Below are positions 6,605 through 38,687 of a stretch of DNA of 64,000 nt, in pieces. The notes beneath the pieces were generated by a model, which saw only the letters and a program-made list of their open reading frames with translations, was not told where the DNA came from and did no database searches. Each line of letters opens with the position of its first letter. The stretch's first letter is position 1. This DNA comes from Deltaproteobacteria bacterium. Lineage in GTDB: Bacteria > Myxococcota > Kuafuiibacteriia > Kuafuiibacteriales > Kuafuiibacteriaceae. The position numbers and the translations under genes were made by a program. The stretch is from assembly GCA_040218735.1 (NCBI GenBank), contig JAVJQW010000043.1, forward strand, positions 32,001 through 96,000, written 5' to 3'.

Positions 6605-6630
6605 AGGAGGCGGGGGAGGGCGACGTAGTC
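6605..6630 (+). promoter_or_regulatory. Putative ECF-sigma promoter AGGA-N15-CGTAGTC upstream of CHAT gene 1
   Basis: AGGA 6605-6608, CGTAGTC 6624-6630; same spacing recurs at 30034-30057 (+) and 38662-38687 (-). Confidence 0.55.
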
Positions 6631-6643
6631 CCATCGGGGACTG

Positions 6644-9355
6644 GTGCATCTTCTCCCGACCACGATGACCACCGCGAGCGACGCCCGCGGCGGGGTGCTG
6701 GCGCTCGGCGGCGTGGCCTTCATGCTCATGGCGGTCGCCGCCGCGTACCTGTGGCACGATCGCGGCGAGCCCGAGACGGCGGTCGCCGCCGCGGCGCCCG
6801 AGAAGCCGCTGAAGGTCTACTTCGGCGGCTGCCACGAGGTCCACGAGGGCCCGGTGTGCATGCTCAGCGGCACCGCGACGATCACGCTGTGGATGGAGGA
6901 CCCGGGGTACGAGCCCGTGGTGCTGGTGGATGGGCAAAAGGCTGTGACACGGGGTGCCCCGATCGACGGAGGTGTTCGCGTGCGAGTCGCCGTTTCATCC
7001 TCAGCCCGGCGTCTGACCATCGAACCCGATCGGTGGAACCTTCCCATTGAAAGCGCGCGGCATTTCCCAGCTGTCGACCGAATCCAAGCCGAGCGTATCG
7101 CACGGCCGGCCCACGCGCTCGCACAGGCTGTCCGCGCTAAGGATATCGCCCGTGATTCGCATGAACGCGCGGAACTGGCGTCGATGACCGCTCGGCTCCA
7201 CTACGACCTCAGGAATCGTGAGTGGAAAGACGACATCCTTCAATCCATCGAGCTACATCGCGTCAACGGATGTCTCACTGGAATGGCAAGAGACCTCGCG
7301 TTCGCTAGTCATCGCCTTCGCGATAATGGAGATATCGCGGGATCCCGTGATTCCCTCCGTCTGCTCGACGACGTTGCACGGAAGGCGCCGGAGTACAAAC
7401 TGGCGCATGCGTACTTCGACGCAATGCTCAAGAACCAGACTGGTGACACAAGAGCTGCTCTGGATGCACTCGACCACCTCAATCTGTGGTCCTACCGCCT
7501 TGCTGACCAAACATACCACGAGGCGTCAATATACCTAACCCTATTACTAATGTCCTTTCTTTCGCGTAGTTCGGAGACGCAACTGCTCCTCGAAAGACTC
7601 TCCGCGCAGGTGGCGAACACGCGAGAGCCCTGCGCAAAGGCTCGACTGCTAAATAACTTGGCGTGGTTCGGACGCGGTGTGGATGTCGATCGGAGCGTGC
7701 GTGCGGCGATGGAATCCGCACAAATCTACAGTGCTTCGTGCCCAAACGCCGAAGGCGATGTCCTCCTCCGGCTAACACTCGGGCGCCTCTACCTTCAGAA
7801 GGGTGATGCCGAATCGGTGCAGTCTACTCTGGCCTCGTTGGCGCGTTACTCACGGACCGAAATAAGCGCCCGTAATCAGATCGAGATTGATGACCTACGG
7901 GCGCACCTGGCTGCGCTCAATGGCGACGGAAACAGGGCTCTTCGGCTATTCGACTCAGTACGGCGTCGGACTGGGATTCACTATGAGGCCAAGCTCCATT
8001 GGAGCGCACTAGTTGGTATCGCAGCGGCGTACCTGCGTGACGGTCAAACGAGCCTTGCGGTCGAGACTCTACAGGAGGCAGAACGACTTGTGGATCTTCT
8101 TGTCCTTTCGATCCCACTCGGCGAAGGGAGGACTTCTTTCACAGACGAAATGGGTCGCTCATCAGAGATGCTGGTCGAGGTCCACCTCGACGACGGCGAT
8201 CTAGACGCAGCTATGAGAACCGCTGCAGCTAGTATCCGAAGAGCATCAAGCGCTCTTGCTCTGGCCGCGCGAGTGTCAGCGCTGCCAGCTGACATACGGG
8301 GCAGATTCCGAGATCGACTCGAATCCTACCGTGCGGATCGCCAGCAACTAGCGTCGATTGTTCGTGATGCCTGGAGACTGCCGACGACGCAGCGTCGGCG
8401 AATGGAACACCGCCGCCTGCGACTTGAAGCAAAGTTGACTCGGCATCTTGACGCAATGGTGTCCATGGCTGAGCTTGACTGGAGACAGGACGAACGGCCC
8501 CTTGAAACTACAAGTGGAGAACTCGTTCTCTATCCGACGGCCGATGGCTTTGTAGCGCTACTTCGCCTCTTCGGCGGCCTCGAGTGGACGAAGATATCCG
8601 GTGATCTGGAGACGAACCTGAGAGATTGGCTAGCGCTAAGTCTGAATCTCCGGGGCGGTGAGTTGCATCGACTTTTCGTACTTTCTCACCCAAAGCTGTT
8701 ACAGATACCAGTAGACCGGCTAGTCAGTCAGTTGTCGCCGTCTCCTGTCGTTACTGCCTACTCCGCCGGACTGTTGCAAGCACATCGGCCGAAGAGGCCA
8801 AAGCGAGCTCTTGTTGTCGGTGATCCGGACGGCACGCTGCCGCAATCGCGGTCTGAGATTGAAGTCGTGCGTCGACAATTGACTGCGAAGCGTTGGATGG
8901 TAGACGTGGTAGTAGGTGACGACGCCCGAAGGGAGACGATTCTCGCGAGCCTATCAGATGTGCGTTACGGCCTATTTCACTTCGCAGGACATTCAGCTTC
9001 ACGCGGGGTGTCGGGTTGGGAGAGCTATCTTAGGACGGCCGATTCCGACTCCATCACGGTTGCCGACATCTTTGCGCTCGAGTCGGTTCCCCCGGTTGTT
9101 GTGCTTTCCTCATGCGAAGGTGGCGGCGATGGGTTCTCGCCCGTTGGAATTGCTCAGGCGATGATTGCGCGCGGGGCAGTCGTGGTCATAGCAGCAACGC
9201 GTGATGTTGAGGACGGGTACGCAAGGAAGCTCGCCACCGAGCTGTATCGGCCGGAGGGTGAACTCCGGGTTGATGTCCGATTGGCTGAGCTAGGTTGGAA
9301 TGCACAGAATGTAGAAAACGCTCGTGCCGCTGGGTTTCGAACCTTTGTGAGGTAA
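6644..9355 (+). CDS. Membrane-anchored/exported TPR-CHAT (caspase-like) protease 1
   Basis: N-terminal hydrophobic helix; TPR-like helical middle; CHAT motifs ALVVGDPDGTLP, LFHFAGHS (His), VVLSSCEG (Cys). Confidence 0.88.
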   Translation: MHLLPTTMTTASDARGGVLALGGVAFMLMAVAAAYLWHDRGEPETAVAAAAPEKPLKVYFGGCHEVHEGPVCMLSGTATITLWMEDPGYEPVVLVDGQKAVTRGAPIDGGVRVRVAVSSSARRLTIEPDRWNLPIESARHFPAVDRIQAERIARPAHALAQAVRAKDIARDSHERAELASMTARLHYDLRNREWKDDILQSIELHRVNGCLTGMARDLAFASHRLRDNGDIAGSRDSLRLLDDVARKAPEYKLAHAYFDAMLKNQTGDTRAALDALDHLNLWSYRLADQTYHEASIYLTLLLMSFLSRSSETQLLLERLSAQVANTREPCAKARLLNNLAWFGRGVDVDRSVRAAMESAQIYSASCPNAEGDVLLRLTLGRLYLQKGDAESVQSTLASLARYSRTEISARNQIEIDDLRAHLAALNGDGNRALRLFDSVRRRTGIHYEAKLHWSALVGIAAAYLRDGQTSLAVETLQEAERLVDLLVLSIPLGEGRTSFTDEMGRSSEMLVEVHLDDGDLDAAMRTAAASIRRASSALALAARVSALPADIRGRFRDRLESYRADRQQLASIVRDAWRLPTTQRRRMEHRRLRLEAKLTRHLDAMVSMAELDWRQDERPLETTSGELVLYPTADGFVALLRLFGGLEWTKISGDLETNLRDWLALSLNLRGGELHRLFVLSHPKLLQIPVDRLVSQLSPSPVVTAYSAGLLQAHRPKRPKRALVVGDPDGTLPQSRSEIEVVRRQLTAKRWMVDVVVGDDARRETILASLSDVRYGLFHFAGHSASRGVSGWESYLRTADSDSITVADIFALESVPPVVVLSSCEGGGDGFSPVGIAQAMIARGAVVVIAATRDVEDGYARKLATELYRPEGELRVDVRLAELGWNAQNVENARAAGFRTFVR

Positions 9356-9362
9356 ATTTGAG

Positions 9363-9824
9363 ATGAGATACAAACTTCTGTTCTTGACGATTCTGACGGC
9401 TGCAAATGCTACTGCTTGCATTCCTGTCCATCGCTGCGACTGCTGTGAGAAAGTCGTTGTGAAATGCGCTGACGGGCGCGGGCAGTCTGGCGATGGTGGG
9501 CTCGGTCCCGTTGGGCCTGACGCTCCCTGCCCACCATGCACCCTCTACATCTCGGACACCCAGCTCCAGGGCGTCCTGGATCCCAAGTACTCGAAGCACG
9601 AGTACCCGTTCACCACCGCCACCCTCACGGTGTTCAACGCCGCGGCGAATCCGATCGGGCAGGCGGTCCTTCAACCTGATCACCAGTACGGGGGGACGAA
9701 CATCGACCAGAAGGTCGTGTTCGATACGCCGCTCGACACGAACGACATCAAGTCGGCGTCGATTCGGTGGATCGACAAGAACGGGCAGGCCCTCGAGCAG
9801 CCGAACATCATGCTCAAGCCCTGA
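9363..9824 (+). CDS. Small secreted/lipoprotein with PCPPC domain
   Basis: Signal peptide with ATAC lipobox-like site; paralogous to 9885-10274. Confidence 0.75.
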   Translation: MRYKLLFLTILTAANATACIPVHRCDCCEKVVVKCADGRGQSGDGGLGPVGPDAPCPPCTLYISDTQLQGVLDPKYSKHEYPFTTATLTVFNAAANPIGQAVLQPDHQYGGTNIDQKVVFDTPLDTNDIKSASIRWIDKNGQALEQPNIMLKP

Positions 9825-9849
9825 GTCGCACCTGCCCTCTCGGGCAGTG

Positions 9850-9877
9850 TTGCGCCCCCCCCCCCGCGGCCTAAGCT
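9850..9877 (+). promoter_or_regulatory. Putative sigma70-type promoter with C11 tract in the spacer
   Basis: TTGCGC 9850-9855, 16-nt spacer (C run 9855-9865), TAAGCT 9872-9877, ATG at 9885; preceded by hairpin ctgccc-tctc-gggcag. Confidence 0.45.
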
Positions 9878-9884
9878 CGCCGCC

Positions 9885-10274
9885 ATGAACACGTCCAAGA
9901 TGCTCATCATGGCGAGCGCGCTCGCGGCCGCCTTCGTCTGGGTCGCGCTACCCGCCGCACTGCTGAGCGCGAACCCGAACGTGTCGTGTCCACCCTGCAC
10001 CTACGACATCTCGCGCCAAGAGCTCACCGGCACCCTCGACCCCGGCTACACCGCGCACCCCTTCCCCTTCACCGGCATGACGCTCACGCTCGTGGACGGC
10101 TCCGACAACGTGCTCGACACGATCGCGGACCTCCCGCCGAGCTTTCAGTACGGTAGCACCGTGCTCGATCAGGTCATCGACACCGACGTCACCTCCGGCG
10201 TCGCCAAGGCTCAGCTCGAGTGGATGGACGACGACAACAACCCGGTCTCCCAGACGATCACCGTCGTCCCCTGA
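9885..10274 (+). CDS. Small secreted protein with CPPC domain (paralog of upstream gene)
   Basis: Signal peptide; CPPCTYDISRQELTGTLDPGY..PFPFT aligns with CPPCTLYISDTQLQGVLDPKY..EYPFT; both share QYG and a W..D motif. Confidence 0.78.
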   Translation: MNTSKMLIMASALAAAFVWVALPAALLSANPNVSCPPCTYDISRQELTGTLDPGYTAHPFPFTGMTLTLVDGSDNVLDTIADLPPSFQYGSTVLDQVIDTDVTSGVAKAQLEWMDDDNNPVSQTITVVP

Positions 10275-10287
10275 GATCCAGGCCCCC

Positions 10288-12093: not shown

Positions 12094-13265
12094 CCTGCGG
12101 ATGGTAACAAACGCACGAAGGCCGCGACGAAGAACCCGTCCGTGTCGTGCTCGTCCGGCCGCAGCGTCTCGCGCGGCGACGCACCCGGCCACACCGGCAC
12201 CGCTTCCACATCCGCCGACGCCTCGAACGCCGAAGCAACCTCCGCGTTCTCGGCCGACAGCAACGAACACGTCGCGTACACGATGCGCCCGCCCGGGCGA
12301 ACCAGCGAAAACGCCCGCCGCAGTAAATCCAGCTGCAGCGACGCCAACGACGCCACCTCCGCCGCCGACACCCGCCACTTCCGGTCCGGCCCGCGCCGCC
12401 ACGTCCCGGTCGCGGAACACGGCGCATCCACCAACACCCGATCCGCTCCACTCGACGGAGCCGACCCAGTCAGATCCACCACCCGCACCGACGGCGAATC
12501 GACACGCCCCAACCGAACCTCCAGATCGCGAAGCCGCGCGCCATCGACGTCACACGCCCACAGCGTCCCGGTGTCCTCCATCGCCGCCGCGAGCGCCAAA
12601 GTCTTACCGCCGGCGCCCGCGCACAGATCGATCACCGCCTCACCGGGCCGCGCGTCCACCGCCACCGCGACCATCTGGCTCGCCTCGTCCTGAACCTCGA
12701 ACGCCCCGTCGCGCCACGCCGCAGACCCGCGAATGTCCGGCCGCCCCGACAACCGCAGCGCACACGGCGCGAGCTGCCTCGGCGCGACGTCCATTCCCTC
12801 CGCGCGCAACCGCAAAGCCAACGTGTCCCGATCTCCGCGCGCACGAATCGCGATCGGCCCCGGCGTGTTCATCACCTCCGCGACCGCGAACGCCGAGTCA
12901 CCGAACTGCTGATACCAGTCCGCCGCGACGAAGTCCGGCAGCGAACCCCACACGCGAAGCCGCTCGACGACACCGGCGGGCCAATCTCCCCGTGCGACCG
13001 GGCCCGAACTCGGGCTCGGCGGCGGCAGCAAGTCATCTCGCCGATCGTACAACTCATGCCAACTCAGCTCCGGAAAGCGCGCCGCCAGATATTCCAACCG
13101 CACGCGATGACAACGCACCCCGTGCACCAGCTCCGCCACGCGCCGGCGTCCGTCGTTGTCCAGCTCCGGATGCGCGCGGAGCGTTCGCTTCAATACACGG
13201 TCCGCCGGCGCCCCCGCCTCCACGCGTTCGAGTGCGGAGGCCGCGATTACCTCCGCCAGCGCCAT
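12090..13265 (-). CDS. RsmB/NOP family SAM-dependent RNA methyltransferase
   Basis: EVQDEASQ, DLCAGAGGKT, LVDAPCSATG, YATCS, TDGFF. Confidence 0.92.
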   Translation of the reverse strand: MALAEVIAASALERVEAGAPADRVLKRTLRAHPELDNDGRRRVAELVHGVRCHRVRLEYLAARFPELSWHELYDRRDDLLPPPSPSSGPVARGDWPAGVVERLRVWGSLPDFVAADWYQQFGDSAFAVAEVMNTPGPIAIRARGDRDTLALRLRAEGMDVAPRQLAPCALRLSGRPDIRGSAAWRDGAFEVQDEASQMVAVAVDARPGEAVIDLCAGAGGKTLALAAAMEDTGTLWACDVDGARLRDLEVRLGRVDSPSVRVVDLTGSAPSSGADRVLVDAPCSATGTWRRGPDRKWRVSAAEVASLASLQLDLLRRAFSLVRPGGRIVYATCSLLSAENAEVASAFEASADVEAVPVWPGASPRETLRPDEHDTDGFFVAAFVRLLPSAG

Positions 13266-14593: not shown

Positions 14594-14658
14594 CGGGGCG
14601 CGCCGACGATACCTCGAAAAAGAGGGCACGAACGGCCCCGGATCGGTATTCTTCGGCC

Positions 14659-15168: not shown

Positions 15169-15198
15169 CCCCCGTCGGGGCCCTCGCAAGGATGCCCC

Positions 15199-18522: not shown

Positions 18523-19781
18523 AACCCAAGGCGCGCGATGGGTTGATCACCGCCGACCACACGCGTCGCGGGCGGCGTATCGTCACCGTGCTGGATCCCG
18601 AAACCCACCGCGTGACCGTTCTCGAACCTTGGGAGCACGCGGTGCTCGTCCTGTGCGACGGAACGCGGACGGCGGAGCAGGTCGCGGTGCTGATGCCCGA
18701 CGACGACGAAGTTACCGTCGACGCCGCCGCGGTGCGTTTGTGTTTCGAGTTGTTCCAGCGCGAGCAGGTCACGACGAGCGCGGCGCCGCGCCCACGTTCG
18801 GCGGGGCCTCGGACCCTCGCGAACCTGCAGCTCGCGTACGCGGAGTGGCACAAGGACCCCGTACGCACGAAGCAGATCCTCCTCGGGGAGGTCGAGCCGT
18901 TCCCGGCGCAGCCCGACGCGCTGTCGCCCGGTTTGTCGCCCACGGTCGCGCTGCCGGACGAGGAGCCCGCGCACCGCGTCGGGAGTGTGTTGGTCGCCGC
19001 GGACATCTCTTCGATGCCGACGGGCGCCGCGACGCCGATCGATCCCAGCGCGACCGACGAGATGGACGGCGCGCCGCCGAGCGCCCTGTACGAGCCGTTG
19101 CCGTCGAAGGACGCGCCGGAAGAGGACCTGGACCGTACCCACGATGCGGACCTCGTGCCGCCGCTGGAGCTCGAGGACGAACCCACCTTCGGTTACGCCA
19201 AACGTCCGGCCGATGAGGCGGCCTCGACGCTCTCCGAGCAGAACCAGCCCTCGCGTCCACGACGCGAGCGGGGCTCTCTCCCGGTCGCGCCGATGGATCC
19301 GGAGGACACCGAGGACATCACGTCGATGCCCAACAGCGCGGCTGCGGTGTTCGCTCGTCTTCGGCGCGCGGGGGTGGTCGCGCGGTCGACGCGTGAGTGG
19401 AAGGACCCGCGCGGCGAGGGGCGGCGTAAGAATCGCGCGTCCACGCAGGTGTTCGAGACCGGGCTCGAGCTGCTCGCGGCCGGGGATCTTCAGTTCGCGT
19501 TGGAGCACTTCCAGACGCTCCTCGAGCACATGCCCGGGTCGAGCCGCGTGTCGGCGTTCGTCCGGGCGATCGAAGCGGTGCGTCGGCAGCCTGCGTTCGA
19601 CACGGCGCCGATGGCGACGCCGGAGGAGGTCGCGCGCGCGCGCGCGATGTTGGATTCGTTCGAAGGTGCGATCGCGGAGGCCGTGCAGCGCGGTCAGTGC
19701 CCGAGTTGTTTTGCGGGCGTTTCGCCGGGTGACGAGGACTGTCCGCGTTGTGGGTTCGTGCTTCGGTCGGAGGAGTTTTGA
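18519..19781 (+). CDS. Hypothetical protein: PqqD/RRE-like N-terminus, low-complexity linker, TPR and C-terminal zinc ribbon
   Basis: GTGA overlap start; LVLCDGTRTAEQV; CPSC...CPRC. Confidence 0.65.
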   Translation: MKPKARDGLITADHTRRGRRIVTVLDPETHRVTVLEPWEHAVLVLCDGTRTAEQVAVLMPDDDEVTVDAAAVRLCFELFQREQVTTSAAPRPRSAGPRTLANLQLAYAEWHKDPVRTKQILLGEVEPFPAQPDALSPGLSPTVALPDEEPAHRVGSVLVAADISSMPTGAATPIDPSATDEMDGAPPSALYEPLPSKDAPEEDLDRTHDADLVPPLELEDEPTFGYAKRPADEAASTLSEQNQPSRPRRERGSLPVAPMDPEDTEDITSMPNSAAAVFARLRRAGVVARSTREWKDPRGEGRRKNRASTQVFETGLELLAAGDLQFALEHFQTLLEHMPGSSRVSAFVRAIEAVRRQPAFDTAPMATPEEVARARAMLDSFEGAIAEAVQRGQCPSCFAGVSPGDEDCPRCGFVLRSEEF

Positions 19782-20884
19782 AGGCGGCGCTCGTCGCGCT
19801 GCTGTTGCTCGCGACGCCGGAAGGTAGCGAAGCGGAGCGACGCTCGATGGCGCTCCTCGCCGCGGGAGACAAGGCCTTCGACAACCTCGAGTACGAGGAG
19901 GCCGCGAAGCGGTACTTGGAGGCGTACCGTCTGCTAGAGGCGGCGGGGGAGCGGAACCGCGCTCCGTTCCTCTACAACGCGGGCCTCGCCTACGAGCAGC
20001 TCGGTTCCTGTGAGAAGGCGGTCGTCCTGTTCGACCGCTACCTCGAGACCGAGCAGATGAGTGTGACGCGGGAGATCGCGGGGACGATCGACCGAGCGCG
20101 CCGATGCGCGCCGACGATCCGGATTCAGACGAACCCACCCGGTGCGTCCGTACTCATCGACGGCGTCTCCGTCGGAGCGTCGCCGCTCTCGGTTCCGGTG
20201 CGCGCCGGAGAGCACGTGCTTCGGTTCGAGATGGATGGGTATCGTTCGCTCGAGACCGCGCTGAACGTCGAAGAGGGGAGACCGCGCGCGGTGGTGGAGT
20301 CGTTGGCCGGGCGCGCGAAGTTGGGGCGCATCGACTTGGTCGTGCGGGATATCTCCGAGGTTTCCATCGACGACGAAGTCATCGGGAGAGGGCCGTTCGA
20401 GCGCCAGGTGAAGATCGCGCACGGCAAACACGACGTCCGTTTGAATCGACTGGGCTGTGAGCTCCGGGAGCTGGAGCTGAACGTCCCGCCGGGAGGTTCG
20501 GTCGAGGCCGCGTTCTCACCGGACTGCGTGGCGGTCCCCGCGCAGGAGCCTCCGCACGGCCCCTACGTCCGCGGGCGAGGCGGCTCGAACGCGCCCGCGT
20601 GGATCAGCGGAGGCATCGGTGTCGCCGCGCTCGCGGTGAGCGGCGTCTTCGTAGGTTTGTCGATCGACGGCCGCAACGCGGTGGACGCCGAGCTCGCGAA
20701 GCCCGACGACGTGCGCGTCGGCGCCGAGGTGCGCCGGCTCAACGACGACGTGGGACGTAACAACGTCGTCGCGGTCTCCGCGGGCGTCGCGGGGTTGGCG
20801 GCGTTGAGTTTGGCGGTGGTGCTCTGGGTGACTTCGCCCGAGCCGCTGGAGGCCACGGTCGCAGGCCCGACGGCGCGATTCTAG
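19778..20884 (+). CDS. TPR + PEGA domain protein
   Basis: TTG start after AGGAG; LYNAGLAYEQLG; TNPPGASVLIDG..G.SPL; C-terminal TM helices. Confidence 0.85.
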   Translation: MKAALVALLLLATPEGSEAERRSMALLAAGDKAFDNLEYEEAAKRYLEAYRLLEAAGERNRAPFLYNAGLAYEQLGSCEKAVVLFDRYLETEQMSVTREIAGTIDRARRCAPTIRIQTNPPGASVLIDGVSVGASPLSVPVRAGEHVLRFEMDGYRSLETALNVEEGRPRAVVESLAGRAKLGRIDLVVRDISEVSIDDEVIGRGPFERQVKIAHGKHDVRLNRLGCELRELELNVPPGGSVEAAFSPDCVAVPAQEPPHGPYVRGRGGSNAPAWISGGIGVAALAVSGVFVGLSIDGRNAVDAELAKPDDVRVGAEVRRLNDDVGRNNVVAVSAGVAGLAALSLAVVLWVTSPEPLEATVAGPTARF

Positions 20885-20937
20885 GAGGCGGCGGGGCATC
20901 GCGTGAGGTTCGAGGCCTTCGACGCATAGAGCCTCGT

Positions 20938-29582: not shown

Positions 29583-29611
29583 TTGACAGACCCTAGGTCG
29601 GCCTTTAGAGG
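29583..29611 (+). promoter_or_regulatory. Putative sigma70 promoter of HU gene
   Basis: TTGACA-N17-TAGAGG; AGGAGG RBS at about 29645. Confidence 0.5.
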
Positions 29612-29659
29612 TCGACTTCAGGCGGGCCCGAGGGCCAGCCCCATAGGAGGTTCGAATCA

Positions 29660-29932
29660 ATGACGAAAGCAGAGCTCCTCGAGGCGATCGCAAAAGGTAA
29701 CCCCGAGCTGACCAAGAAGCAGGTGACCTCGGTCGTCGAGTCCGTGTTCTCGACCATGACCACGGCCATCAAGAAGCAGAAGAAGTTCTCGTACCCCGGC
29801 TTCGGCTCGTTCGAAGTCCGCACGCGCAAGGCGCGCATGGGCCGCAACCCGCAGACCGGTGAGACGATGAAGATCAAGGCGTCGAAGACGGTCGGCTTCA
29901 AGCCCGCGAAGGCCCTGAAGGACATCCTTTAG
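29660..29932 (+). CDS. hup: HU family DNA-binding protein
   Basis: MTKAELL..., GFGSF, RMGRNPQTGE, FKPAKALKD. Confidence 0.95.
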   Translation: MTKAELLEAIAKGNPELTKKQVTSVVESVFSTMTTAIKKQKKFSYPGFGSFEVRTRKARMGRNPQTGETMKIKASKTVGFKPAKALKDIL

Positions 29933-29984
29933 GCGCACGCACGAACTCGGTCCTCTTGCGGAGGACCAGGATGGCTCGTTAGGC

Positions 29985-30030
29985 GGGCCCCGGACCTTCG
30001 CGGTCCGGGGCCCTTTTTTTCGTTTTTTTT
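29985..30030 (+). terminator. Rho-independent terminator after HU
   Basis: Perfect 12-bp stem gggccccggacc/ggtccggggccc, 5-nt loop, followed by T7-cg-T8. Confidence 0.9.
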
Positions 30031-30033
30031 GAA

Positions 30034-30057
30034 AGGACGTCCGAGCGGCTCGCGTAG
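30034..30057 (+). promoter_or_regulatory. Putative ECF-sigma promoter AGGA-N15-CGTAG upstream of CHAT/anti-sigma/S8/sigma operon
   Basis: AGGA 30034-30037, CGTAG 30053-30057; immediately after a strong terminator, so the operon likely needs its own promoter here. Confidence 0.6.
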
Positions 30058-30069
30058 GCCCCTTCGGCC

Positions 30070-32727
30070 GTGCTCGCCTGGACTTCACCTTCGCTGGGCT
30101 CCCGCGTGCCGATCGCGGCGTTGGCCGGGCTGGTCGCGGCGGTGGTTGGACTCGACGGTCCACCGCACACCTCGGCGCGTGCGCAGCTGCTGGGGTTCGT
30201 TGCGGTCGAGCGCGACGCGGATGGCTTGGTCTACGTCTTCGACGCCGAGCACACGCCGTTCGTCGTCGCGGACGCGGCGCCCGAACGTGTCGAGCTCGCG
30301 GCGGACGTGCTCCCGCATCCAAGCGATTGTTCTGCGCGCTGTCGCATCGACGTCACGTTCCCGAGTCGCGCCGAGCTGCAGACGTTCGTGGTCGACGACC
30401 ACATCTGGCGCGTTCGCGTCGTGCCCTCGCGGTGGCCATCGCTCGACGCTGCACGCGAGGCGGCGGACGCTGACCGTTGGGGCGACGCGTTCGCCGCGCT
30501 CGACGCCATCCGCCCCAAGGATCGGCTGGAGCGGATCGCCGTCGCGACGGCCGCCGCCTCGTTCGCGCGTCGACGCGGAGACACCGCCGGATACGTCGAA
30601 GCCGTCGAACGGTGGGGCCGCCTCGCCCGGCGCCTCGACGTCCCGAGCGAGGTGAGCCGCTCGCTCCGCACGCAGGCCTTCTTGGCGTTCTACCGCCGCG
30701 ACTTCGACGCGGTGTTTCCGCTCTTGGATCGCGCCGAGGTCATCGACGCCGACATCGCCAATACTTCGGGCCTCGTTCGCGCTGCCGCCTATCGCAGCCT
30801 GACGCTGCGAGAGCTCGGTCGTTTCCGCGACGGGATGCAAGTAGCCGAGGAAGGCCGACGCCTCGCGCTCGACGTCGGGCTCACGGAAGACGCGGGGACG
30901 CTCGGCGCCGCGATCGCGCGCATCGCGCTGCACTCGGGCGACTACACACGTGCGCTGAAGGAGCTCGACCTCGCCGCTGATCGCGTCGCGCCGCACGAGC
31001 GCGCAGGGGTGCTCGTCGAACGCGGCTGGACGCTCGCCTCTGCGATGGTCGCGGGCGCCATCGAGGTCGACTGGTCGAAGCCGCGCGCCGACTTCGAACG
31101 TGCGTTGCGCCTCGCGAGACGCGACGGCTTGCCGGTCCCGGAAGCCAACGCGCTCGTCGATCTCGCGTGGCTCGATCACCTCGAGGGTCGCGATGCCGCC
31201 GCGGCGCGCCTGCAGGGCCTCGATCTCGAAGCGCACCCCGTCGCGCAGGTCTTCGTGCAGATCGTGGTCGCCACGCGTGCGCGGGAGGAGGGGCGGTTAG
31301 CCGATGCCCGGGCGGGGTTCGAGCGGGCGCTCGCGATGGCGCACGCGGGCAGCGACGAGACCTCCAACCTGGCCTGGCGCGCGACGTACGGTCTCGCGAA
31401 GACCGCGGCGGCGGCGGGCGAAGACGCTCGCGCCGCACAGCTGTTCGATCGTGCGCTCGACGCGCTCGATCGCATCGCGCGCCACGTCGAGATCCATCGT
31501 GCGCGGGCGTTGTTCGCGCAGGATCGCGCGGGGCTCGTCGACGATGCCATCCGCGCTCACCTGTCGCGGGGTGACGTCGCTCGGGCGATGGTCGTGGCGG
31601 ATCGCGCGCGGCTCCTCGTGCTCGAACCGCTCGCATACCGCTCGGCGCTGGAGGGGCTGGACGAATCGCAGCGGTCGGCCTGGCGGCGCGCGGTCTTCGA
31701 CTACGAACGGACGCGCGGCATCTACGAACGGCGCGCGGGCGGGGCGGAGCTGATCCCCGCCTCCCGGCTCGACGCCTATCACCGCGAGACCGAGCGCCAG
31801 CGCGAAGAGCTCCAGGTGCGATTCGACGCGGCGACGGCGATCCTCGACGCGAGCGGCGTCGTCGCGGACTCGGTTCGACTCGGAACGGACGACATCACCG
31901 CCCGCGTCGGACCGGGCCAAGGGCTGCTCTACTTTCACGCCGCCGCCGACGGGACGTACGTCGCGTTCTTCGTGACCGAGGAGCGCATCGAATACGTGGT
32001 GCAATCCGAACCGACGCCCGGGGCTTGGGCGCAGTCGGTTGCGAAGATTTCCCACCTCACGATCGTCCCGCCGCCGGGGCCGGACCCGTGGAGCGCGACG
32101 CACCTCGCACCCGACGCGTTTGCGCCGACGTCGATCTCCTTTCTCCCGCTCGCTGGCCTCCTCGGTCGTCGTGAACAGGCCAACCGCGACGGGCGTCCGG
32201 TCATCGTCGCGGATCCGCAGAGCAACCTCGAAGCGGCGCGCCGCGAGGTCGAGGCGCTGCACCCCGGCGCCCTACGTCTGGTCGGACCCACCGCGACCCG
32301 GCGCGCCGTGCTCGGTGCGCTCGACGGCGCGACGCACTTTCACTTCTCGGGCCACGGGGCGCTCCAGGCCGACCGCCCCTGGGACGCTCGACTGCTCCTC
32401 GCCGCCGGTGAGTCACTCTCCGTCGAAGACCTGCTCATCGTCCGTCCGTCCGTCGCCCACGTCGTTCTGATCGGCTGCCGCACCGGGCGCTCCGCGAAGC
32501 TGAGCCGGACGGCTTACCTCGGGCTCGCGGAGGCGTTCCTCCTCGTGAGCGCCTCGTCCGTCGTCGCGAGCACACGCGACGTCGAGGACGAGTTGTCGCG
32601 ACGGTTCGTGCGGGCGTTCTACGCGGCGGGCGGTGCCGACGATCCGTTCCGCGCGTACGCGACGGTGGCCCGCGACGATCCGCGGCTCGCCCGCCCGTTC
32701 TACGTCGCTGGAGCACCGCGCCCATGA
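30070..32727 (+). CDS. Exported TPR-CHAT (caspase-like) protease 2
   Basis: N-terminal hydrophobic segment; TPR helices; VIVADPQSNL, HFHFSGHG (His), VVLIGCRTG (Cys), GLAEAFL. Confidence 0.9.
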   Translation: MLAWTSPSLGSRVPIAALAGLVAAVVGLDGPPHTSARAQLLGFVAVERDADGLVYVFDAEHTPFVVADAAPERVELAADVLPHPSDCSARCRIDVTFPSRAELQTFVVDDHIWRVRVVPSRWPSLDAAREAADADRWGDAFAALDAIRPKDRLERIAVATAAASFARRRGDTAGYVEAVERWGRLARRLDVPSEVSRSLRTQAFLAFYRRDFDAVFPLLDRAEVIDADIANTSGLVRAAAYRSLTLRELGRFRDGMQVAEEGRRLALDVGLTEDAGTLGAAIARIALHSGDYTRALKELDLAADRVAPHERAGVLVERGWTLASAMVAGAIEVDWSKPRADFERALRLARRDGLPVPEANALVDLAWLDHLEGRDAAAARLQGLDLEAHPVAQVFVQIVVATRAREEGRLADARAGFERALAMAHAGSDETSNLAWRATYGLAKTAAAAGEDARAAQLFDRALDALDRIARHVEIHRARALFAQDRAGLVDDAIRAHLSRGDVARAMVVADRARLLVLEPLAYRSALEGLDESQRSAWRRAVFDYERTRGIYERRAGGAELIPASRLDAYHRETERQREELQVRFDAATAILDASGVVADSVRLGTDDITARVGPGQGLLYFHAAADGTYVAFFVTEERIEYVVQSEPTPGAWAQSVAKISHLTIVPPPGPDPWSATHLAPDAFAPTSISFLPLAGLLGRREQANRDGRPVIVADPQSNLEAARREVEALHPGALRLVGPTATRRAVLGALDGATHFHFSGHGALQADRPWDARLLLAAGESLSVEDLLIVRPSVAHVVLIGCRTGRSAKLSRTAYLGLAEAFLLVSASSVVASTRDVEDELSRRFVRAFYAAGGADDPFRAYATVARDDPRLARPFYVAGAPRP

Positions 32728-33410
32728 ACGACGAGCGCCTGGACTCGCTCCTCGCGCAGGGGCCCGAGCCGGGACCCGAGGGGACCCACGTGGACGACGG
32801 CAAGCTCGTCGCGTTCCGGGAAGGGCGGCTCGGTGCCGACGAGATCAATGACGTCGAGGCACACCTCTCTGCGTGTCGCGATTGCCGTGAGCTACTCGAA
32901 GAGCTCGCCGTCGACGTCGAGCCCGAGCTGTTCGACCGCGCGCGCGCGGCGGCGCGAAGAAACCGACGCTCCGGGCGTGCGCTCGTCGTCGGCCTCGCGC
33001 TCGCGGCGGCGACGCTCGCGGCGTTCTTCCTCCCGCGCAACGGCCCGTTGCCACCCTACGCGGTGGAGGGGCCGATGGGGGGCCTCACCACGGTGCGCGG
33101 TACGTCGCCCGGCGGCGAGGTCTTCGTTCCGGCGAGCCGCGTCAAGATCCTGCTGAGGCCGGAGCGACCCACACGTCCCCCACGCTTGACCGTGTTCGTC
33201 GTCGATCTCGACGGCACCGACGTCCGCGCGCCCGAGGGCGTCGTCACCGCCGGCGAGCAAGGCGGCTTCAGGGTCGAGTTCACGGCTCGGGATCTATTCA
33301 AGCGAACGTTCGGCACACGCACGGTCCGGCTCGTGCTGTCGGACGGCGCCGCCGAAACGCAGTTCGAGGTCGCGGTCGACTACCGCGAGGAAAGAGGGAG
33401 TGAGAGATGA
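32724..33410 (+). CDS. Putative zinc-binding (zf-HC2/ZAS) membrane anti-sigma factor
   Basis: H..........VEAHLSACRDC (HxxxCxxC); single TM ALVVGLALAAATLAAFFL; C-terminal extracytoplasmic domain; ATGA coupling. Confidence 0.8.
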   Translation: MNDERLDSLLAQGPEPGPEGTHVDDGKLVAFREGRLGADEINDVEAHLSACRDCRELLEELAVDVEPELFDRARAAARRNRRSGRALVVGLALAAATLAAFFLPRNGPLPPYAVEGPMGGLTTVRGTSPGGEVFVPASRVKILLRPERPTRPPRLTVFVVDLDGTDVRAPEGVVTAGEQGGFRVEFTARDLFKRTFGTRTVRLVLSDGAAETQFEVAVDYREERGSER

Positions 33411-35698
33411 AACGCCGACAAGCCACCCTGACGGTGCTGATCGTATCGGCGCTGGCGTGCACGACCGCGTCGGAGCCGACGCAGCCCACGGAGAGCGCAT
33501 CGAGGATCCGCGAGCTCGGCCGCCCGTGTCGCTCCGACGCGTTCTTCGTCGACATCCCCGTGAAGCTGGCGATTCCGTCGCACTGGCGGAACGCAGGCTT
33601 CCTCTCGGCGCTCGAAACCAACCTCGAAGCGCTCGCCAACGCGCCGGGCAAGCCGTGGTTCTGTGGTTCGGGCGCGATCACTTGTCCGACGAACGCGGTG
33701 ATCGTCGAAGCCACGTCGCTGCTCCCCGAGCGCTCGACCCCTGCCTGGCGAGCCGACGGTCACCTGCGGCACTTCCGCGTGAAGTTCCGGGAGGCCGGCG
33801 GAGACGGGACGCCGCTCTCCGTTCGGCACCTCGAGCAGTGCAAGGTGGTCGCGACGATCCGCGACGAGTTCGCGCTCGTCGCAGGCGTCGTCGCCGCCGA
33901 CACCCTGTTGGTCGGACGTGAGTGCGACGCATCGGTGGCGGGCGTCGAGGGCGCGCCGAGCGACGAGATGCTCTCGTGGCACCTCACTCGCATCGGACTT
34001 CCGGCCTCCGTGACCGCGGTCGAGCCTCCCGCCTCGTCCACCGTCGACCTCGGGCTCGTCGACTCGGGTGTCATCCCTGAGGTGCAGGCTTCGATCGGCG
34101 TGGCGTCCGAAGACGACCTCGTCGCCGCTCCCGGCCGTCACGTTCACGGGACCGCGCTGGCGATCCTCGCCCGGCAGGTCGCGCCGGAGGCTGCGCTTCG
34201 ATCCGTGCGGGTCCTCGACGCCGGTGGATCCGGGACCAGCGGTGCGCTCGCGCTCGGCCTCGACCAGCTGCTCTTCGACACCACGTCCACGCAGCCGCTG
34301 GTGATCAACCTGAGCCTCGGATGGCCGAAGCAGCTCAGCAACAGCGCCGCGCTGGTCGGTCTCAGCTGCCAGACCCACGAGGACCCGTACGGCGAAGCCG
34401 TGCGCTACGTCCTCGACGTCGCACAGCGCATCGACGCCGCCGGGACCCGTCCGATCTTCGTGGCCTCGTCGGCCGGCAACCTGCCCCTGCCTCCGGACGA
34501 CGCGTTGTTCCCGAACACCGACGGGATGTACGGCCCGGACCCCGACTGCAGCGAGCCCGAGCCGAAGCTCTTCTTCCCCGCCGAGTGGAGCCGCACCGAC
34601 ACCTGCCGCATCGATGTCACGCGGCGCGAGCGCGTCAGCGTTGCGGTGAGCGCGACCGACGACCAAAACCACCGCGCACAGATCTCCATCCCCGGGACGG
34701 AGACGCCGATCGTCGCGCCGGGGCAGCACGTCTACGCCGCCGACGAAGCCGCGCCGCTCACTTCGACGGCCCCGGTGTGTGGCGGAGCGTCGATGGCGTT
34801 CCCGCCGACGGTCACGTTGCCCGTCGCGCTGACGGGGACGTCGGTCAGCTCCGTGTTGGTGTCCGCCGCGGCCGCGCGAGCCCAAGCCGCGTTGATGGCT
34901 GCGGGTGGCGTTCCACTGAAGCGAACCCCGCTCGCTCGCCTGATCTACCTGACGGGGCGCCCCGTGTGTCGCAACACGGCCGAAGGGACGCCGGTGCGCA
35001 TGCTCGACGTCGCGCGTCTGGACGCAGCCATCGCGAACTGTCCGTCCCTCGTTCAGTGCGCGGCGGCCGTTCCGTCTTCCAACGAGTCGATCATCGATAA
35101 ATGGACGCTCGCGGAGTGCAGCATCGAGATCGCCGCCTGCTCCGCGTTGGGCGGGACGCCACCGTGCACGCAGCCGACCTCGGTCGAGTGGCCCAGCGCC
35201 TATATGAACACGCGGGCCGTCTGCAAGCTCGACGTCATCGACGAGCCGCTGAAGCTCGTCTCGAGCTGCACGCCCAACTGTCCCTTCAACAACGGACGTG
35301 ACCGCGCGCTGGTCGGCTCGTTGGGACCGCAGCCCGGCAGCCCGCTCTGCCCGGACTGCCCCGCGCTGATCGACGCGCAGGCGCCGGCCGCCCACCTCGT
35401 CCTCGAGTTGGAGGACACCTACGAGCCGGAGACGACGCTCGCGAACCCGTTCCTCCTGATCTCCGGTCCGCACCCGACGACCGGGCACGTCCAGAAGTTC
35501 CACATCGATCTGTCGAAGGACACGCCGCCGCACATCTGGGTGCCGGGCGCGCACCTCGAGCTCACCGTCTCGCTCGACGGTCCGCAGATCGACTGGGGTC
35601 AGGTCGACGCGATCGATGCCGCGCTCGTCGTCGGCGTCACGCCGCCGGGAGGCAAGGCGTCGACGGACTACTCGCCGCTGCGCGTGGGGCCGCTCTGA
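33407..35698 (+). CDS. S8 (subtilisin-like) serine protease lipoprotein with Cys-rich C-terminal domain
   Basis: Lipobox ALAC; triad LVDSG (D), HGTA (H), GTSVSS (S); VINLSLG, SAGN; C-terminal GPQPGSPLCPDC. Confidence 0.88.
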   Translation: MKRRQATLTVLIVSALACTTASEPTQPTESASRIRELGRPCRSDAFFVDIPVKLAIPSHWRNAGFLSALETNLEALANAPGKPWFCGSGAITCPTNAVIVEATSLLPERSTPAWRADGHLRHFRVKFREAGGDGTPLSVRHLEQCKVVATIRDEFALVAGVVAADTLLVGRECDASVAGVEGAPSDEMLSWHLTRIGLPASVTAVEPPASSTVDLGLVDSGVIPEVQASIGVASEDDLVAAPGRHVHGTALAILARQVAPEAALRSVRVLDAGGSGTSGALALGLDQLLFDTTSTQPLVINLSLGWPKQLSNSAALVGLSCQTHEDPYGEAVRYVLDVAQRIDAAGTRPIFVASSAGNLPLPPDDALFPNTDGMYGPDPDCSEPEPKLFFPAEWSRTDTCRIDVTRRERVSVAVSATDDQNHRAQISIPGTETPIVAPGQHVYAADEAAPLTSTAPVCGGASMAFPPTVTLPVALTGTSVSSVLVSAAAARAQAALMAAGGVPLKRTPLARLIYLTGRPVCRNTAEGTPVRMLDVARLDAAIANCPSLVQCAAAVPSSNESIIDKWTLAECSIEIAACSALGGTPPCTQPTSVEWPSAYMNTRAVCKLDVIDEPLKLVSSCTPNCPFNNGRDRALVGSLGPQPGSPLCPDCPALIDAQAPAAHLVLELEDTYEPETTLANPFLLISGPHPTTGHVQKFHIDLSKDTPPHIWVPGAHLELTVSLDGPQIDWGQVDAIDAALVVGVTPPGGKASTDYSPLRVGPL

Positions 35699-35709
35699 GC
35701 GAGTGACCC

Positions 35710-36294
35710 ATGTCCGTCGACGACCGCCAGATCGTCCGCCGCGCGTTCGCGGATGAGGACGACGAAGCGCTGGAGCAGCTGCTCTGTCGCCTCGTTCCCA
35801 TCATCCGCGCGCGCGCCGCGCGGGCGCTGCGAAGAGGCCCGATCGGCGCGCACGACGTCGCGGACCTGGTCCAGGAGATCTGGATTGCGCTGATCGCCGA
35901 CGGCGGTCGCCGTCTGCTGACCTACGACCCCGCGCACGGCCTCACCCTCGAAGGTTTCGTCGGGTTGATCGCCGAGCGTGAGATCGCTTCGATGCAACGT
36001 AAGGTCCTCGCGAAGAAACGCGGCGGCGATCTCCGAATCGTGAGCGACGATGGCCTCACTGTCGCGGCGTGCGGCGGCAACCCCGAGGACGAGGCGGTCA
36101 CCAACGACCTCGCCGCCCGCCTCGCGGCGCACCTCGACGCGCAGCTCCCGGTGCGCGGTCGCCTCGTCTGGCGGCTCGCGTTCAACGACGGTCAGTCGAC
36201 CGCCGAGGTCGCGCGCAACATGGGCGTCAGCCAACAGGTCGTCTACAACTGGCAGCACAAGATTCGCGCGTTGGCGCGTGCGTTCCTGAAGTGA
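35710..36294 (+). CDS. ECF RNA polymerase sigma factor
   Basis: Region 2 DVADLVQEIWIAL; region 4 LP...RLVWRL...GQSTAEVARNMGVS. Confidence 0.88.
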   Translation: MSVDDRQIVRRAFADEDDEALEQLLCRLVPIIRARAARALRRGPIGAHDVADLVQEIWIALIADGGRRLLTYDPAHGLTLEGFVGLIAEREIASMQRKVLAKKRGGDLRIVSDDGLTVAACGGNPEDEAVTNDLAARLAAHLDAQLPVRGRLVWRLAFNDGQSTAEVARNMGVSQQVVYNWQHKIRALARAFLK

Positions 36295-36349
36295 GGCGGG
36301 GCGGGGTGGGGTGGGCCGGGAGCATCGCGCCCCCGGCCCGAGGCTCGGG

Positions 36350-38614
36350 TCACCGCGAGAAGGGCGAGTCCATGCCTTGGTGGAGCTGCTGCCGCAGCAG
36401 GGTGGTGTTGCCGTCCACGACGTAGCCGTACACCGCACCGCCAGGGAGGTTCAGGCCCAACGCGGTCGGCGTCAGCGATTCGGGCGCGCCGACGAACAGG
36501 CGCATCCGCTCGGCGCCGTACACCCCGCCGACCCCCGCGACCAGCGGGTCGATGTGCACCCAACCCGACGCCAGCGACATCCCGAAGCGCTTGGCGTTCG
36601 AGACCGTCAGCAGGTCAGGTCCGTTGCTGACGTTCCAGGTGGTGACGAGGACGCGCTCGACGCGCCCGTCGCCGTCGAAGGGGGCGCCCACGATGATGTC
36701 GTCATCGCCGTCCGCGTCGATGTCCGCGGCGAGCACGGCGTGACCGTAGCGCCCGCCGTCCACGCTGCCGTGGGCGTCGCCGGCCGCGAAGACCGTGCAC
36801 CCCGAGCCGAAGATCTTCTGATAGACCACCACCCGACCCACCTCGGCGTTGCCGCTGCGGTAGCGCGGGGCGCCGATGATCAACTCGTCGGCGGACTCGA
36901 ACTTGCCGCGCACGTTGCCGGTCGTCATGGAGAATCCGAACTCGCTGTTCGACGTCGGCGGCGTGATGTGCTGGTGGGGTTGGAAGTACTGCAAGCCGCC
37001 ACCGCAGAACACGTAGACGTGCTCGCGACCGTAGGCCGGCGCGGCGATCGCGACGTCGGCGTTCCCATCGCCGTCGAAGTCTCCGGTGGTGACCGCGGCG
37101 CCGAGCGTGAAGGGCGGCGTGCCGCCCAGGCCGCTGACGTCGAGGGGGGCCCCCAGGGCCGTGCCGCTGGGATCCAACGTATCGCCGATGAAGAAGTAGG
37201 CTCTGCCGGTCCCGAAGCCGGAGCTCGCCCGAGGAGCGCCGACGATCAGCTCGTCCGTGCCGTTGCCGTTGCCGTCGCCCGTCGCGAGGGCGGCGCCGAA
37301 CCAGTCGCCGCTGGCCTCGGCGACGCCGGAGATCGAGCTGCCGCTGAGGATGCGCCACGGGGTCAGAGGCTCGTAGTCGCTGTCGACGCACGTCGGGCAG
37401 TTCGTGTCCGTCGCTTGCGGTTGCATGTTGGCCTGGGCGAACTGGCCGCCGCCGAAGATCGAGACCGTGCCGGACGCGATGCCGAACGGGCTGAGCGCGC
37501 CGGGCGCGCCGACGGCGAGGTCGGGGAACTGATCTCCGTCGAAGTCACCCACCGCGAGCGCGGCGCCGAAGCGATCGTCGTTGCCGTGCAGGCCGCCGAC
37601 GTCCGCGTAGCGCAGGACGCGCCAGGGGACGGGCGTGCGCGCGGTGCCCTTGTAGACGAGCACGGCGCCGAACGTCGTCGAGCCGGGTCCGGCCTCACCG
37701 GGCACGCCGACGGCGATGTCGTCGTAGCCGTCCTGGTCGAAGTCGGCGACGACCATCGCTGCGCCCATGTCCTCGTTCGGGAGCGGTGTGCTCAGCGGCT
37801 CGGCGTACATCAACCACAGCGCGTTGATGTCGTGTTTGGTCGGGAGGTTGTTCGTCGCGATGGCGGTCTGGGTGCCCGGCACGTCCGGGGCGGTGTCGAC
37901 ACCGGCGCGGGCCTTCAGCGTCTGATTCGTCGTGACGTAACCCTCGGTCGTGAGTGACGTCGTGGTCTCGCAGACGAACTGCGGAGGCGTCACCGTGTAG
38001 TCCCAGACCGGCGTGCAGAACAGGTTCGTGCCGTAGTGCATGACCGACTGGTGGTCGTAGGGCGTGAGCTTCGAGTGGTCGTTCGGATCCTTGATTTCGA
38101 AGTTGTGCGCCTTGTCAGCGATGTTGGCGTGGATCACCGTGACGTAGTCGTCCCGGTCGGGCCGTTGGTGCTCGTGCCTCAGGCCGAGGATGTGGCCGAC
38201 CTCGTGAATCGCCGTGCGTACGCCTGCGTTGTCCGTGAGGTGGACGACCGACTTTCCGCCGCCCGTACCGTTCTTGGCGTGTGACCCGCCGTTCGTGTCG
38301 GGCTCGCGCTGGAACAGGATGTAGTCGCCGCTGCCGCTCGGGACCTGGATGAACTGAAGCGGCACGCGCGCTTCGAGGGCGTCGACCGCTTGTTCGACGG
38401 CGCCGACGACGTCCGCGGGGAGCACCTTGTCGGCGTCGGACCCCGAGTAATACGTGTACTGGACGACGTTGCTCGGCCAGCGCGTCCCGAGGTCGTTCCT
38501 CGCGTAGACCTCGTCGGTCGTCGTCTCGGCCTCCACCGCTTCGGGCAGCTCACCCGAGCAGGCCGTGAGCCACAGCGTCGCCCACGCGAGGTGAGTCTTG
38601 GTTGGATGTTTCAT
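36350..38614 (-). CDS. Astacin (M12A) metalloprotease lipoprotein with FG-GAP repeats
   Basis: Lipobox LTAC; HEVGHILGLRHEHQRPDRD, Met-turn SVMHY; repeated FGAALAxGDFDGDxxxDLxVGAP. Confidence 0.92.
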   Translation of the reverse strand: MKHPTKTHLAWATLWLTACSGELPEAVEAETTTDEVYARNDLGTRWPSNVVQYTYYSGSDADKVLPADVVGAVEQAVDALEARVPLQFIQVPSGSGDYILFQREPDTNGGSHAKNGTGGGKSVVHLTDNAGVRTAIHEVGHILGLRHEHQRPDRDDYVTVIHANIADKAHNFEIKDPNDHSKLTPYDHQSVMHYGTNLFCTPVWDYTVTPPQFVCETTTSLTTEGYVTTNQTLKARAGVDTAPDVPGTQTAIATNNLPTKHDINALWLMYAEPLSTPLPNEDMGAAMVVADFDQDGYDDIAVGVPGEAGPGSTTFGAVLVYKGTARTPVPWRVLRYADVGGLHGNDDRFGAALAVGDFDGDQFPDLAVGAPGALSPFGIASGTVSIFGGGQFAQANMQPQATDTNCPTCVDSDYEPLTPWRILSGSSISGVAEASGDWFGAALATGDGNGNGTDELIVGAPRASSGFGTGRAYFFIGDTLDPSGTALGAPLDVSGLGGTPPFTLGAAVTTGDFDGDGNADVAIAAPAYGREHVYVFCGGGLQYFQPHQHITPPTSNSEFGFSMTTGNVRGKFESADELIIGAPRYRSGNAEVGRVVVYQKIFGSGCTVFAAGDAHGSVDGGRYGHAVLAADIDADGDDDIIVGAPFDGDGRVERVLVTTWNVSNGPDLLTVSNAKRFGMSLASGWVHIDPLVAGVGGVYGAERMRLFVGAPESLTPTALGLNLPGGAVYGYVVDGNTTLLRQQLHQGMDSPFSR

Positions 38615-38661
38615 GGTCGTTCCTTCCTCGAGCGCGCGGGGGGGCGCATCGATCTGGGGCC

Positions 38662-38687
38662 GACTACGGGAGGTGGGGGCCGTTCCT
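38662..38687 (-). promoter_or_regulatory. Putative ECF-sigma promoter AGGA-N15-CGTAGTC upstream of astacin gene
   Basis: Reverse strand AAAGGA-acggcccccacctcc-CGTAGTC; same spacing as copies at 6605 and 30034. Confidence 0.55.

Follow-up and report, generated by a model that had tools for sequence, protein, structure and literature searches.

The DNA considered here is a stretch of 64,000 nucleotides (the window) from a deltaproteobacterial genome of the phylum Myxococcota (GenBank assembly GCA_040218735.1, contig JAVJQW010000043.1, positions 32,001 to 96,000). An earlier note on it had described a recurrent motif, AGGA followed by 15 nucleotides of any kind and CGTAG (AGGA-N15-CGTAG), and had attributed it to a sigma factor of the extracytoplasmic function (ECF) type that would drive its own operon and a set of secreted proteases. 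The motif is probably the form that a conserved promoter of the ECF type takes here. This promoter would belong to a module of four genes, encoding a CHAT protein, an anti-sigma factor, an S8 subtilase-like protein and the ECF sigma factor, and would both autoregulate that operon and drive an adjacent gene for an astacin metalloprotease.

The module and its predicted promoters occupy these positions of the window:

30029 to 30057, plus strand: predicted ECF-type promoter of the CHAT-2 operon, with a short A-run and GGA (AGGA at 30034-30037), a 15-nucleotide spacer and CGTAG at 30053-30057.

30070 to 32727, plus strand: CHAT-2, first gene of the operon, for an exported caspase-like protease of the TPR-CHAT type (PF12770, E 5.7e-21).

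32724 to 33410, plus strand: single-pass zinc-binding anti-sigma factor (zf-HC2, PF13490, E 8.8e-5).

33407 to 35698, plus strand: S8 subtilase-like lipoprotein (PF00082, E 6.3e-8).

35710 to 36294, plus strand: ECF sigma factor (TIGR02937, E 8.4e-15; PF07638, E 2.5e-5).

36350 to 38614, minus strand: lipoprotein with astacin (M12A) and FG-GAP domains (PF01400, E 7e-23; PF01839, E 2.2e-39).

38664 to 38690, minus strand: predicted ECF-type promoter of the astacin gene, with an A-run and GGAAC, a 15-nucleotide spacer and CGTAG.

CHAT-2 is 885 residues long and has a hydrophobic N-terminus. Its HFxGH motif and cysteine (H758, H762 and C803) are invariant in nine aligned homologs. The translation of the anti-sigma factor, 228 residues, shows an H-x3-C-x2-C motif and one hydrophobic helix. 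In the S8 protein, D219, H247, N358 and S479 are invariant in eight homologs, and the signal peptide ends with a lipobox-like cysteine. The astacin/FG-GAP gene is convergent with the operon, and its signal peptide is also lipoprotein-like.

Evidence for a conserved promoter is provided by the homologous clusters. This genome has four copies of the cluster, one in the window and the others at the loci C61, C59 and C54, all with the same gene order. Of 20 genomes of the class, 8 encode the S8-like protein; in a sample of 401 from the phylum, 12 do, and a scan of genome records with the S8 alignment returned nine loci, most of which had already been collected. The records of these relatives are titled Polyangia, Myxococcota or Nannocystaceae. 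In a second family the genes for the anti-sigma factor, the ECF sigma factor and the CHAT protein lie in that order on one strand and the S8 gene diverges from them on the other. There the element is found before both of the divergent transcription units.

For the comparison, 19 upstream regions from 15 loci were searched with the pattern A[GA][GA]N-N15-NGTAN. It was found in 16 of the regions and at 12 of the loci, while mononucleotide shuffles gave about 2 on average and 5 at most. Columns that the pattern leaves unconstrained are conserved as well in the 15 sites outside the window. Directly before the 4-mer, A stands at three successive positions in 14, 15 and 15 of these sites and at the two positions further upstream in 11 and 9; GTA is preceded by A in 12 of them. 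Conservation of these columns indicates a -35 signal made up of an A-run and a following G, rather than AGGA as such, and a -10 core of GTA. The predicted consensus reads roughly GAAAAAG(G/A)N - 15 nt - (A/C)GTA(G/C/A).

The spacer columns of the same 15 aligned sites carry little information, that is, they are not conserved. A non-conserved spacer of constant length between two short conserved elements is the arrangement found in ECF promoters. The element also lies upstream of the unit that encodes the sigma factor, both in the window and in the homologous clusters, as is the case in autoregulated systems. What is kept upstream of the homologous clusters is therefore the form A-run + G(G/A)N - N15 - nGTAn; the AGGA spelling by which the motif was first recognised is not itself conserved. 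The exact motif does recur in G001, a genome of the same genus, with an unrelated spacer and before a distinct paralogous operon; the S8 protein encoded there shares only 36-38% identity with any of the four copies here. A literature search on ECF sigma factors with CHAT, subtilase and anti-sigma proteins, which covered part of the supplement of the ECF classification, found no account of this promoter.

The distance from promoter to gene also follows a pattern. The first start codon lies 8-16 nucleotides past the -10 5-mer at 8 of the 18 sites examined. For CHAT-2 itself, the first GTG of the long open reading frame (ORF) is 12 nucleotides past the 5-mer, and the gap is 8-16 nucleotides in seven other clusters. 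Because the start codons lie so close, the operon mRNAs may be leaderless or nearly so. The S8 and astacin genes have leaders of 37-58 nucleotides.

The second predicted promoter, that of the astacin gene, was evaluated with a matrix built from the 15 sites outside the window, with which both strands of the genome (23.2 million positions) were scored. The astacin site reaches 17.06 bits, which places it 11th of all positions and 8th among the intergenic ones, and it is the only match in the window above 12 bits. The local sigma gene is 2.4 kb away from it; the ATG of the astacin gene follows 49 nucleotides downstream of the site, preceded by a purine-rich stretch. The astacin gene is a likely target of the predicted ECF promoter and hence an output of the regulon.

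Sequences of near-identical strains are available from other metagenome runs. Among the differences listed for them, the A-run of the astacin site is one base shorter at 38687 in three strains, and a deletion of five bases is seen at position 36303, between the sigma and astacin genes. The astacin domain also matches the NCBIfam model of the LegP metalloprotease with 95.7 bits against a cut-off of 300, which reflects a shared astacin fold family and not membership.

The exact motif occurs five times in the window, three times in intergenic DNA and twice in coding DNA. The three copies of the earlier note, at 6605-6628 (plus), 30034-30057 (plus) and 38664-38687 (minus), have the letters, positions and identical spacing that it reported. 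Each is intergenic and oriented toward the next gene, which is that of CHAT-1, CHAT-2 and the astacin/FG-GAP protein, respectively. Its statement that all copies are intergenic has to be withdrawn, since two exact copies that it did not list run antisense inside coding ORFs:

43803 to 43826, plus strand: exact copy of the motif, taken as chance, antisense in a coding ORF according to our own gene calls.

62994 to 63017, plus strand: exact copy of the motif, taken as chance, antisense in a coding ORF according to our own gene calls and a Pfam hit.

How often such copies arise by chance depends on the background. Shuffling gives 0.23 exact copies per window. This figure is too low, because the counts across the genome (11.6 Mb, 69% G+C) show a periodicity of three bases. 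Exact matches number 214 with a spacing of N12, 250 with N15, 257 with N18 and 258 with N21, and 13-50 with spacings that are not multiples of three. The count for N15 alone corresponds to about 1.4 matches per 64 kb. Given this periodicity, most copies in the genome are artefacts of codon usage, and N15 is not special overall. The earlier note had named a motif as frequent in coding DNA as upstream of genes as grounds for giving up its proposal. Genome-wide the motif is indeed mostly a coding artefact; upstream of the homologous clusters the promoter-like element is conserved.

Could all three intergenic copies be chance matches of a pattern picked out by eye? The codon periodicity behind the 250 matches and the two coding copies in the window itself lend themselves to such an explanation. 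So do the counts in intergenic DNA, which was defined by a crude codon-usage gene caller of our own (9,289 ORFs, 94.8% coding, probably over-called). Intergenic exact matches number 7 for N15 and 0-6 for the twelve other spacings tested, with 6 for N18 and 5 for N14. Yet 5 of these 7 lie at most 150 nucleotides upstream of a start codon on the same strand, and 3 of the 5 fall within the window, which makes up 0.55% of the genome. As a post hoc control, all combinations of a 4-mer, a gap of 13-19 nucleotides and a 5-mer were enumerated over the window's 25 upstream regions. In 2.5% of 200 shuffles, some pair with four or more A/T letters was common to at least three of the regions. On the window alone, then, the motif is real and modestly beyond chance, but less clean than earlier stated. 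That the element persists at 12 of 15 homologous loci, the spacers being unrelated, together with the rank of the astacin site, makes coincidence at all three sites very improbable, and the comparative data largely exclude it.

Several other matches in the genome show no link to the module and are treated as chance. These are the intergenic exact copies at C8 (before an ORF of 155 residues, no family) and C9 (an ORF of 1,963 residues, no family), and the intergenic matches to the looser pattern AAAGG-N16-nGTA[GAC] at C57 (weak CARDB), C61:52586 (Ser/Thr kinase) and C70 (CNNM transporter). In G001, a scan with AGGA-N15-CGTAG and two flanking letters gave 55 matches against 42 for the reversed control, and is uninformative.

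A number of points weigh against the proposal of a conserved, autoregulating promoter. The intergenic count for N15 is barely above that of other spacings. The search pattern was written after several of the sites had been seen and is hence fitted to them. The loci are akin, three of the genomes belonging to one genus and each divergent pair sharing a single intergenic region, so that the counts overstate their independence. The pattern was not found in 3 of the 19 upstream regions, at C61 and C54 of this genome and in G002. At E <= 1e-40 the 19 other genomes of the class yielded no homolog of the astacin protein, which precludes footprinting the promoter of its gene. The assignment of the sites to the sigma factor at 35710 is based on proximity only. 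Finally, the CHAT-2 site itself scores only 0.06 bits with the family matrix, rank 22,113 of the 23.2 million positions.

This last point can be traced to the DNA directly upstream of the operon, where another transcription unit ends:

29660 to 29932: HU-like gene upstream of the CHAT-2 operon (PF00216, E 8e-32).

29985 to 30013, plus strand: intrinsic terminator of the HU-like gene, a stem of 12 pairs, 11 of them G-C, followed by a T-run.

The terminator sits between the HU-like gene and the operon and ends 16 nucleotides short of the motif region. The score of the CHAT-2 site is low because the T-run of the terminator replaces most of its A-run. The matrix, derived from 15 related sites, weighs heavily against T, and low scores such as this one are compatible with function. 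We still regard the CHAT-2 site as the predicted promoter of the operon. Its spacer is homologous to that of the locus L039, where the element reads AGGC-N15-AGTAA. The promoter region is unchanged in the covering contigs of near-identical strains from four metagenome runs, and since the flanks are unchanged too, this is uninformative.

The other copies of the module in this genome bear on the question of which sigma factor reads the element. The operon at C59 carries a near-identical element with GGTAG. At C61 the element is found before the operon and before a divergent gene for a thermolysin-like M4 metalloprotease of 1,190 residues, with the -10 variants ACGAC and ACTAC. The ATG of this M4 gene (L094, G000:C61:301000-304748) lies only 7 nucleotides past the -10-like 5-mer, which suggests that its mRNA, too, may be leaderless. 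The C61 locus appears to repeat the arrangement of the window, with a promoter for the cluster and a secreted metalloprotease as output, and so supports it.

Further runs of genes led by an ECF sigma factor were seen in this genome (G000) at C67 (80488-86479) and C50 (30291-34342). Each consists, in this order, of an ECF gene, an ORF of 227-243 residues and a CHAT gene, with one more ORF in between at C67. Their sigma factors are 34-35% identical to that of the window. In all, the genome contains 21 matches to the CHAT domain.

Near-identical motifs serve the four paralogous sigma factors of this genome and, in G001, a distinct paralog. The element might therefore be real and yet be read by another factor, either one of the three paralogous sigma factors or some other shared one, in which case the sites in the window would form no private regulon of the sigma factor at 35710. 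The existence of four paralogous clusters, the near-identity of the C59 element and the exact AGGA-N15-CGTAG of the G001 lineage, whose S8 protein is about equally distant from all four (36-38% identity), fit this explanation. Against it, the element stays with the cluster when its genes are rearranged and in both families, and the astacin site is a short distance from the local sigma gene. At C61, moreover, the operon and the neighbouring gene share a -10 variant of their own, which speaks for a matching of sigma factor to promoter at each locus. Control by another factor is on balance unlikely.

The remaining intergenic copy of the motif lies upstream of CHAT-1, a gene outside the module:

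6605 to 6628, plus strand: copy of AGGA-N15-CGTAG upstream of CHAT-1, an exact motif without the A-run.

6602 to 6669, plus strand: predicted long hairpin over the motif, the spacer and the conserved ATG at 6665, based on folding z-scores.

6665 to 9355, plus strand: CHAT-1, a membrane-anchored TPR-CHAT protein (PF12770, E 4e-18).

The ATG at 6665 is the probable start of CHAT-1. It is conserved in G001, where the GTG at 6644 reads TTG. The G001 protein, 43% identical, is the single ortholog of CHAT-1 that was found; metagenome scans with the protein or with a two-sequence alignment found no further relatives.

This copy could be a third target of the sigma factor, and the chances that it is are about even. 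Equally, it may be no promoter at all. The motif would then match by coincidence within a structured 5' leader that is transcribed from further upstream, and the hairpin at 6602-6669 would mask the start codon at 6665. Besides lacking the A-run, the site scores -4.39 bits (rank 94,454), which lies between the two coding copies (43803 with -2.16 bits, rank 46,884, and 62994 with -7.12 bits, rank 208,779) and is no better than they are. A block of 35 nucleotides is identical at 34 positions in G001 and includes AGGA, CGTAG and, unlike at the other sites, the whole spacer; elsewhere in the intergenic region the two genomes resemble each other far less. In this genome the region folds better than shuffled sequences with z -2.7, and in G001 with z -4.25, a value that 0 of 200 shuffles reached there. 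The consensus hairpin has 24 pairs. The only substitution in the spacer is compensated, from G-C to C-G, and one G-U pair becomes G-C.

Other observations favour a promoter at this position. Only two sequences are compared, which makes a single compensatory pair weak evidence for a leader hairpin. No sigma-70-like promoter was found upstream of CHAT-1 by a consensus scan of either genome. With 5 oriented upstream N15 matches in the genome and some 21 regions with CHAT domains, a chance match before a CHAT gene is unlikely by simple arithmetic. The G001 ortholog keeps both half-sites, in a genome that also has the exact motif at one operon. A promoter and a hairpin may also coexist, since a transcript that starts after CGTAG would lack the 5' arm of the hairpin.

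Further upstream, the blocks TTTTGCG and TCACGTAT (window 6527-6533 and 6549-6556) are kept in G001. The second contains CGTA, and the two could represent another promoter. Rfam searches returned no family at gathering score anywhere in the window. The composition of CHAT-1 is atypical: over 6944-9355, the G+C content at third codon positions is 0.62 overall, against 0.85-0.92 in the neighbours, and it is 0.94 in the first 300 nucleotides of the gene and 0.53-0.64 thereafter. For this reason our codon-usage gene caller missed the gene. CHAT-1 could be a recent acquisition or a chimeric gene.

A wider scheme would combine these observations. Small changes in the -10 element, which is nGTAG at C59 and in the window but ACnAC at C61, would keep the four modules separate from one another, and each would drive its own operon as a leaderless mRNA together with its own neighbouring secreted metalloprotease (astacin or M4). 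They would then act as parallel, protease-gated switches in the periplasm for extracellular proteolysis. At CHAT-1 the ECF promoter would lie inside the hairpin, so that transcripts dependent on the sigma factor start within it and escape the masking of the start codon that affects transcripts from an upstream promoter. As a whole this scheme is speculative and improbable.

One further site was proposed as a copy of the motif, a variant upstream of an M14 peptidase gene:

20906 to 20929, plus strand: AGGT-N15-CATAG, rejected as chance, with two mismatches and a matrix score of -9.05 bits.

It is one of 341 matches in the window with at most two mismatches, where shuffles give 160. Its score is the lowest of the six sites (rank 353,620 of 23.2 million), and it was dropped as a further copy. 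The gene directly upstream of the M14 peptidase gene, at 19748-20884, encodes a PEGA-domain protein. Such proteins recur: a second one, fused to a Ser/Thr kinase, is encoded by L091 (G000:C61:52500-54574), the gene 3' of a match with an A-run and GTAC.

Taken together, the proposal that the sigma factor at 35710 drives its own operon and a set of secreted proteases survives in part. The homologous upstream regions speak for the operon and the genome-wide rank for the astacin gene, CHAT-1 stands at about even odds, and the variant before the M14 gene is noise. In the mechanism that this would imply, the anti-sigma factor holds the sigma factor at the membrane until a proteolytic event in the periplasm, involving the CHAT protein, the S8 protein or both, releases it. 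The free sigma factor would bring RNA polymerase to the promoter of its own operon (30029-30057), directly past the terminator, and would give rise to an mRNA that is leaderless or has a very short leader. It would also direct transcription of the convergent astacin/FG-GAP gene from the promoter at 38664-38690. Knowledge of how ECF promoters work is unchanged by the finding. If it is true, four paralogous pairs of sigma factor and promoter in one genome would be a natural set in which to follow how ECF promoter specificity diverges.

How the system relates to known ones can be judged from its sigma factor, its promoter and its gene content. A family search with the sigma factor matched only general sigma-70/ECF families. 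Classical ECF promoters such as those of the sigma-W type read TGAAAC-N16-CGTA. The element described here is similar in its A-rich -35 region ending in a single G or C, in its spacer of about 16-17 nucleotides if the hexamer is taken as AAAAAG, and in its CGTA-type -10. The sigma family and the gene content differ, and the likeness is one of general architecture only.

A second system for comparison is the group ECF54, which shares with the window a sigma gene beside genes for a subtilase and a TPR/CHAT protein. According to the group descriptions in the parts of the sources consulted, ECF54 is found entirely (100%) in Actinobacteria, is without an anti-sigma factor, has a carboxypeptidase-regulatory-like domain protein at position +1 and a predicted promoter GTATCAG/CTCC, and has been proposed to be controlled by proteolysis (PMC7826278, PMC8999054). 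On those descriptions, membership in this group is not supported: the module here is myxococcotal, has a zf-HC2 anti-sigma factor, and shows neither a GTATCAG/CTCC promoter nor a carboxypeptidase-regulatory-like protein at +1.

The closest characterised system, as far as the portions of the literature consulted describe it, is DdvS/DdvA of Myxococcus xanthus. ECF sigma factors in general use bipartite -35/-10 promoters with spacers of 14-17 bp and often autoregulate (PMC6061681). DdvS uses GTAA-N16-CGT promoters, mapped by rapid amplification of 5' cDNA ends, that also drive neighbouring genes (PMC6061681), and its partner DdvA is a zinc anti-sigma factor with a TPR-CHAT domain as its periplasmic portion (PMC6061681, PMC11506125). 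Of three matches of the window sigma factor among PDB sequences (E <= 1e-3; best 9isn_F, 'ECF sigma factor', 2.3e-8), none is named DdvS, the presence of a DdvS chain in the database being unconfirmed.

From these accounts the two systems share several features. Both belong to Myxococcota, and in both an ECF sigma factor is held by a single-pass zinc anti-sigma factor and combined with a periplasmic TPR-CHAT module. A peptidase gene lies in the operon of each. Both have bipartite promoters with a GT-containing -10, autoregulated and also driving neighbours, and one start site at or beside the start codon, these last features, like the hold of the anti-sigma factor, being predictions in the present case. 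If the reading given here is correct, it supplies, for a split DdvA-like switch of Myxococcota gated by a TPR-CHAT protein and a subtilase, a consensus of the promoter and, in the secreted metalloproteases, the first genes likely to be its output; for related groups, gene neighbourhoods alone have been described so far.

The differences from DdvS/DdvA, on the same accounts, concern the way in which the parts are joined and what they control. TPR-CHAT is fused to the anti-sigma factor in DdvA, whereas here it is a separate exported protein of 885 residues. Its His-Cys dyad is intact here, while the active site of DdvA is described as incomplete. The cluster here has an S8 subtilase-like gene as a constant component. 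The -35 element is GTAA (with N16-CGT) in the one case and an A-run with GGA, N15 and CGTAG in the other. Finally, the predicted outputs here are secreted metalloproteases, in contrast to the genes of cyclic oligonucleotide-based antiphage signalling systems (CBASS) or CRISPR genes under DdvS.

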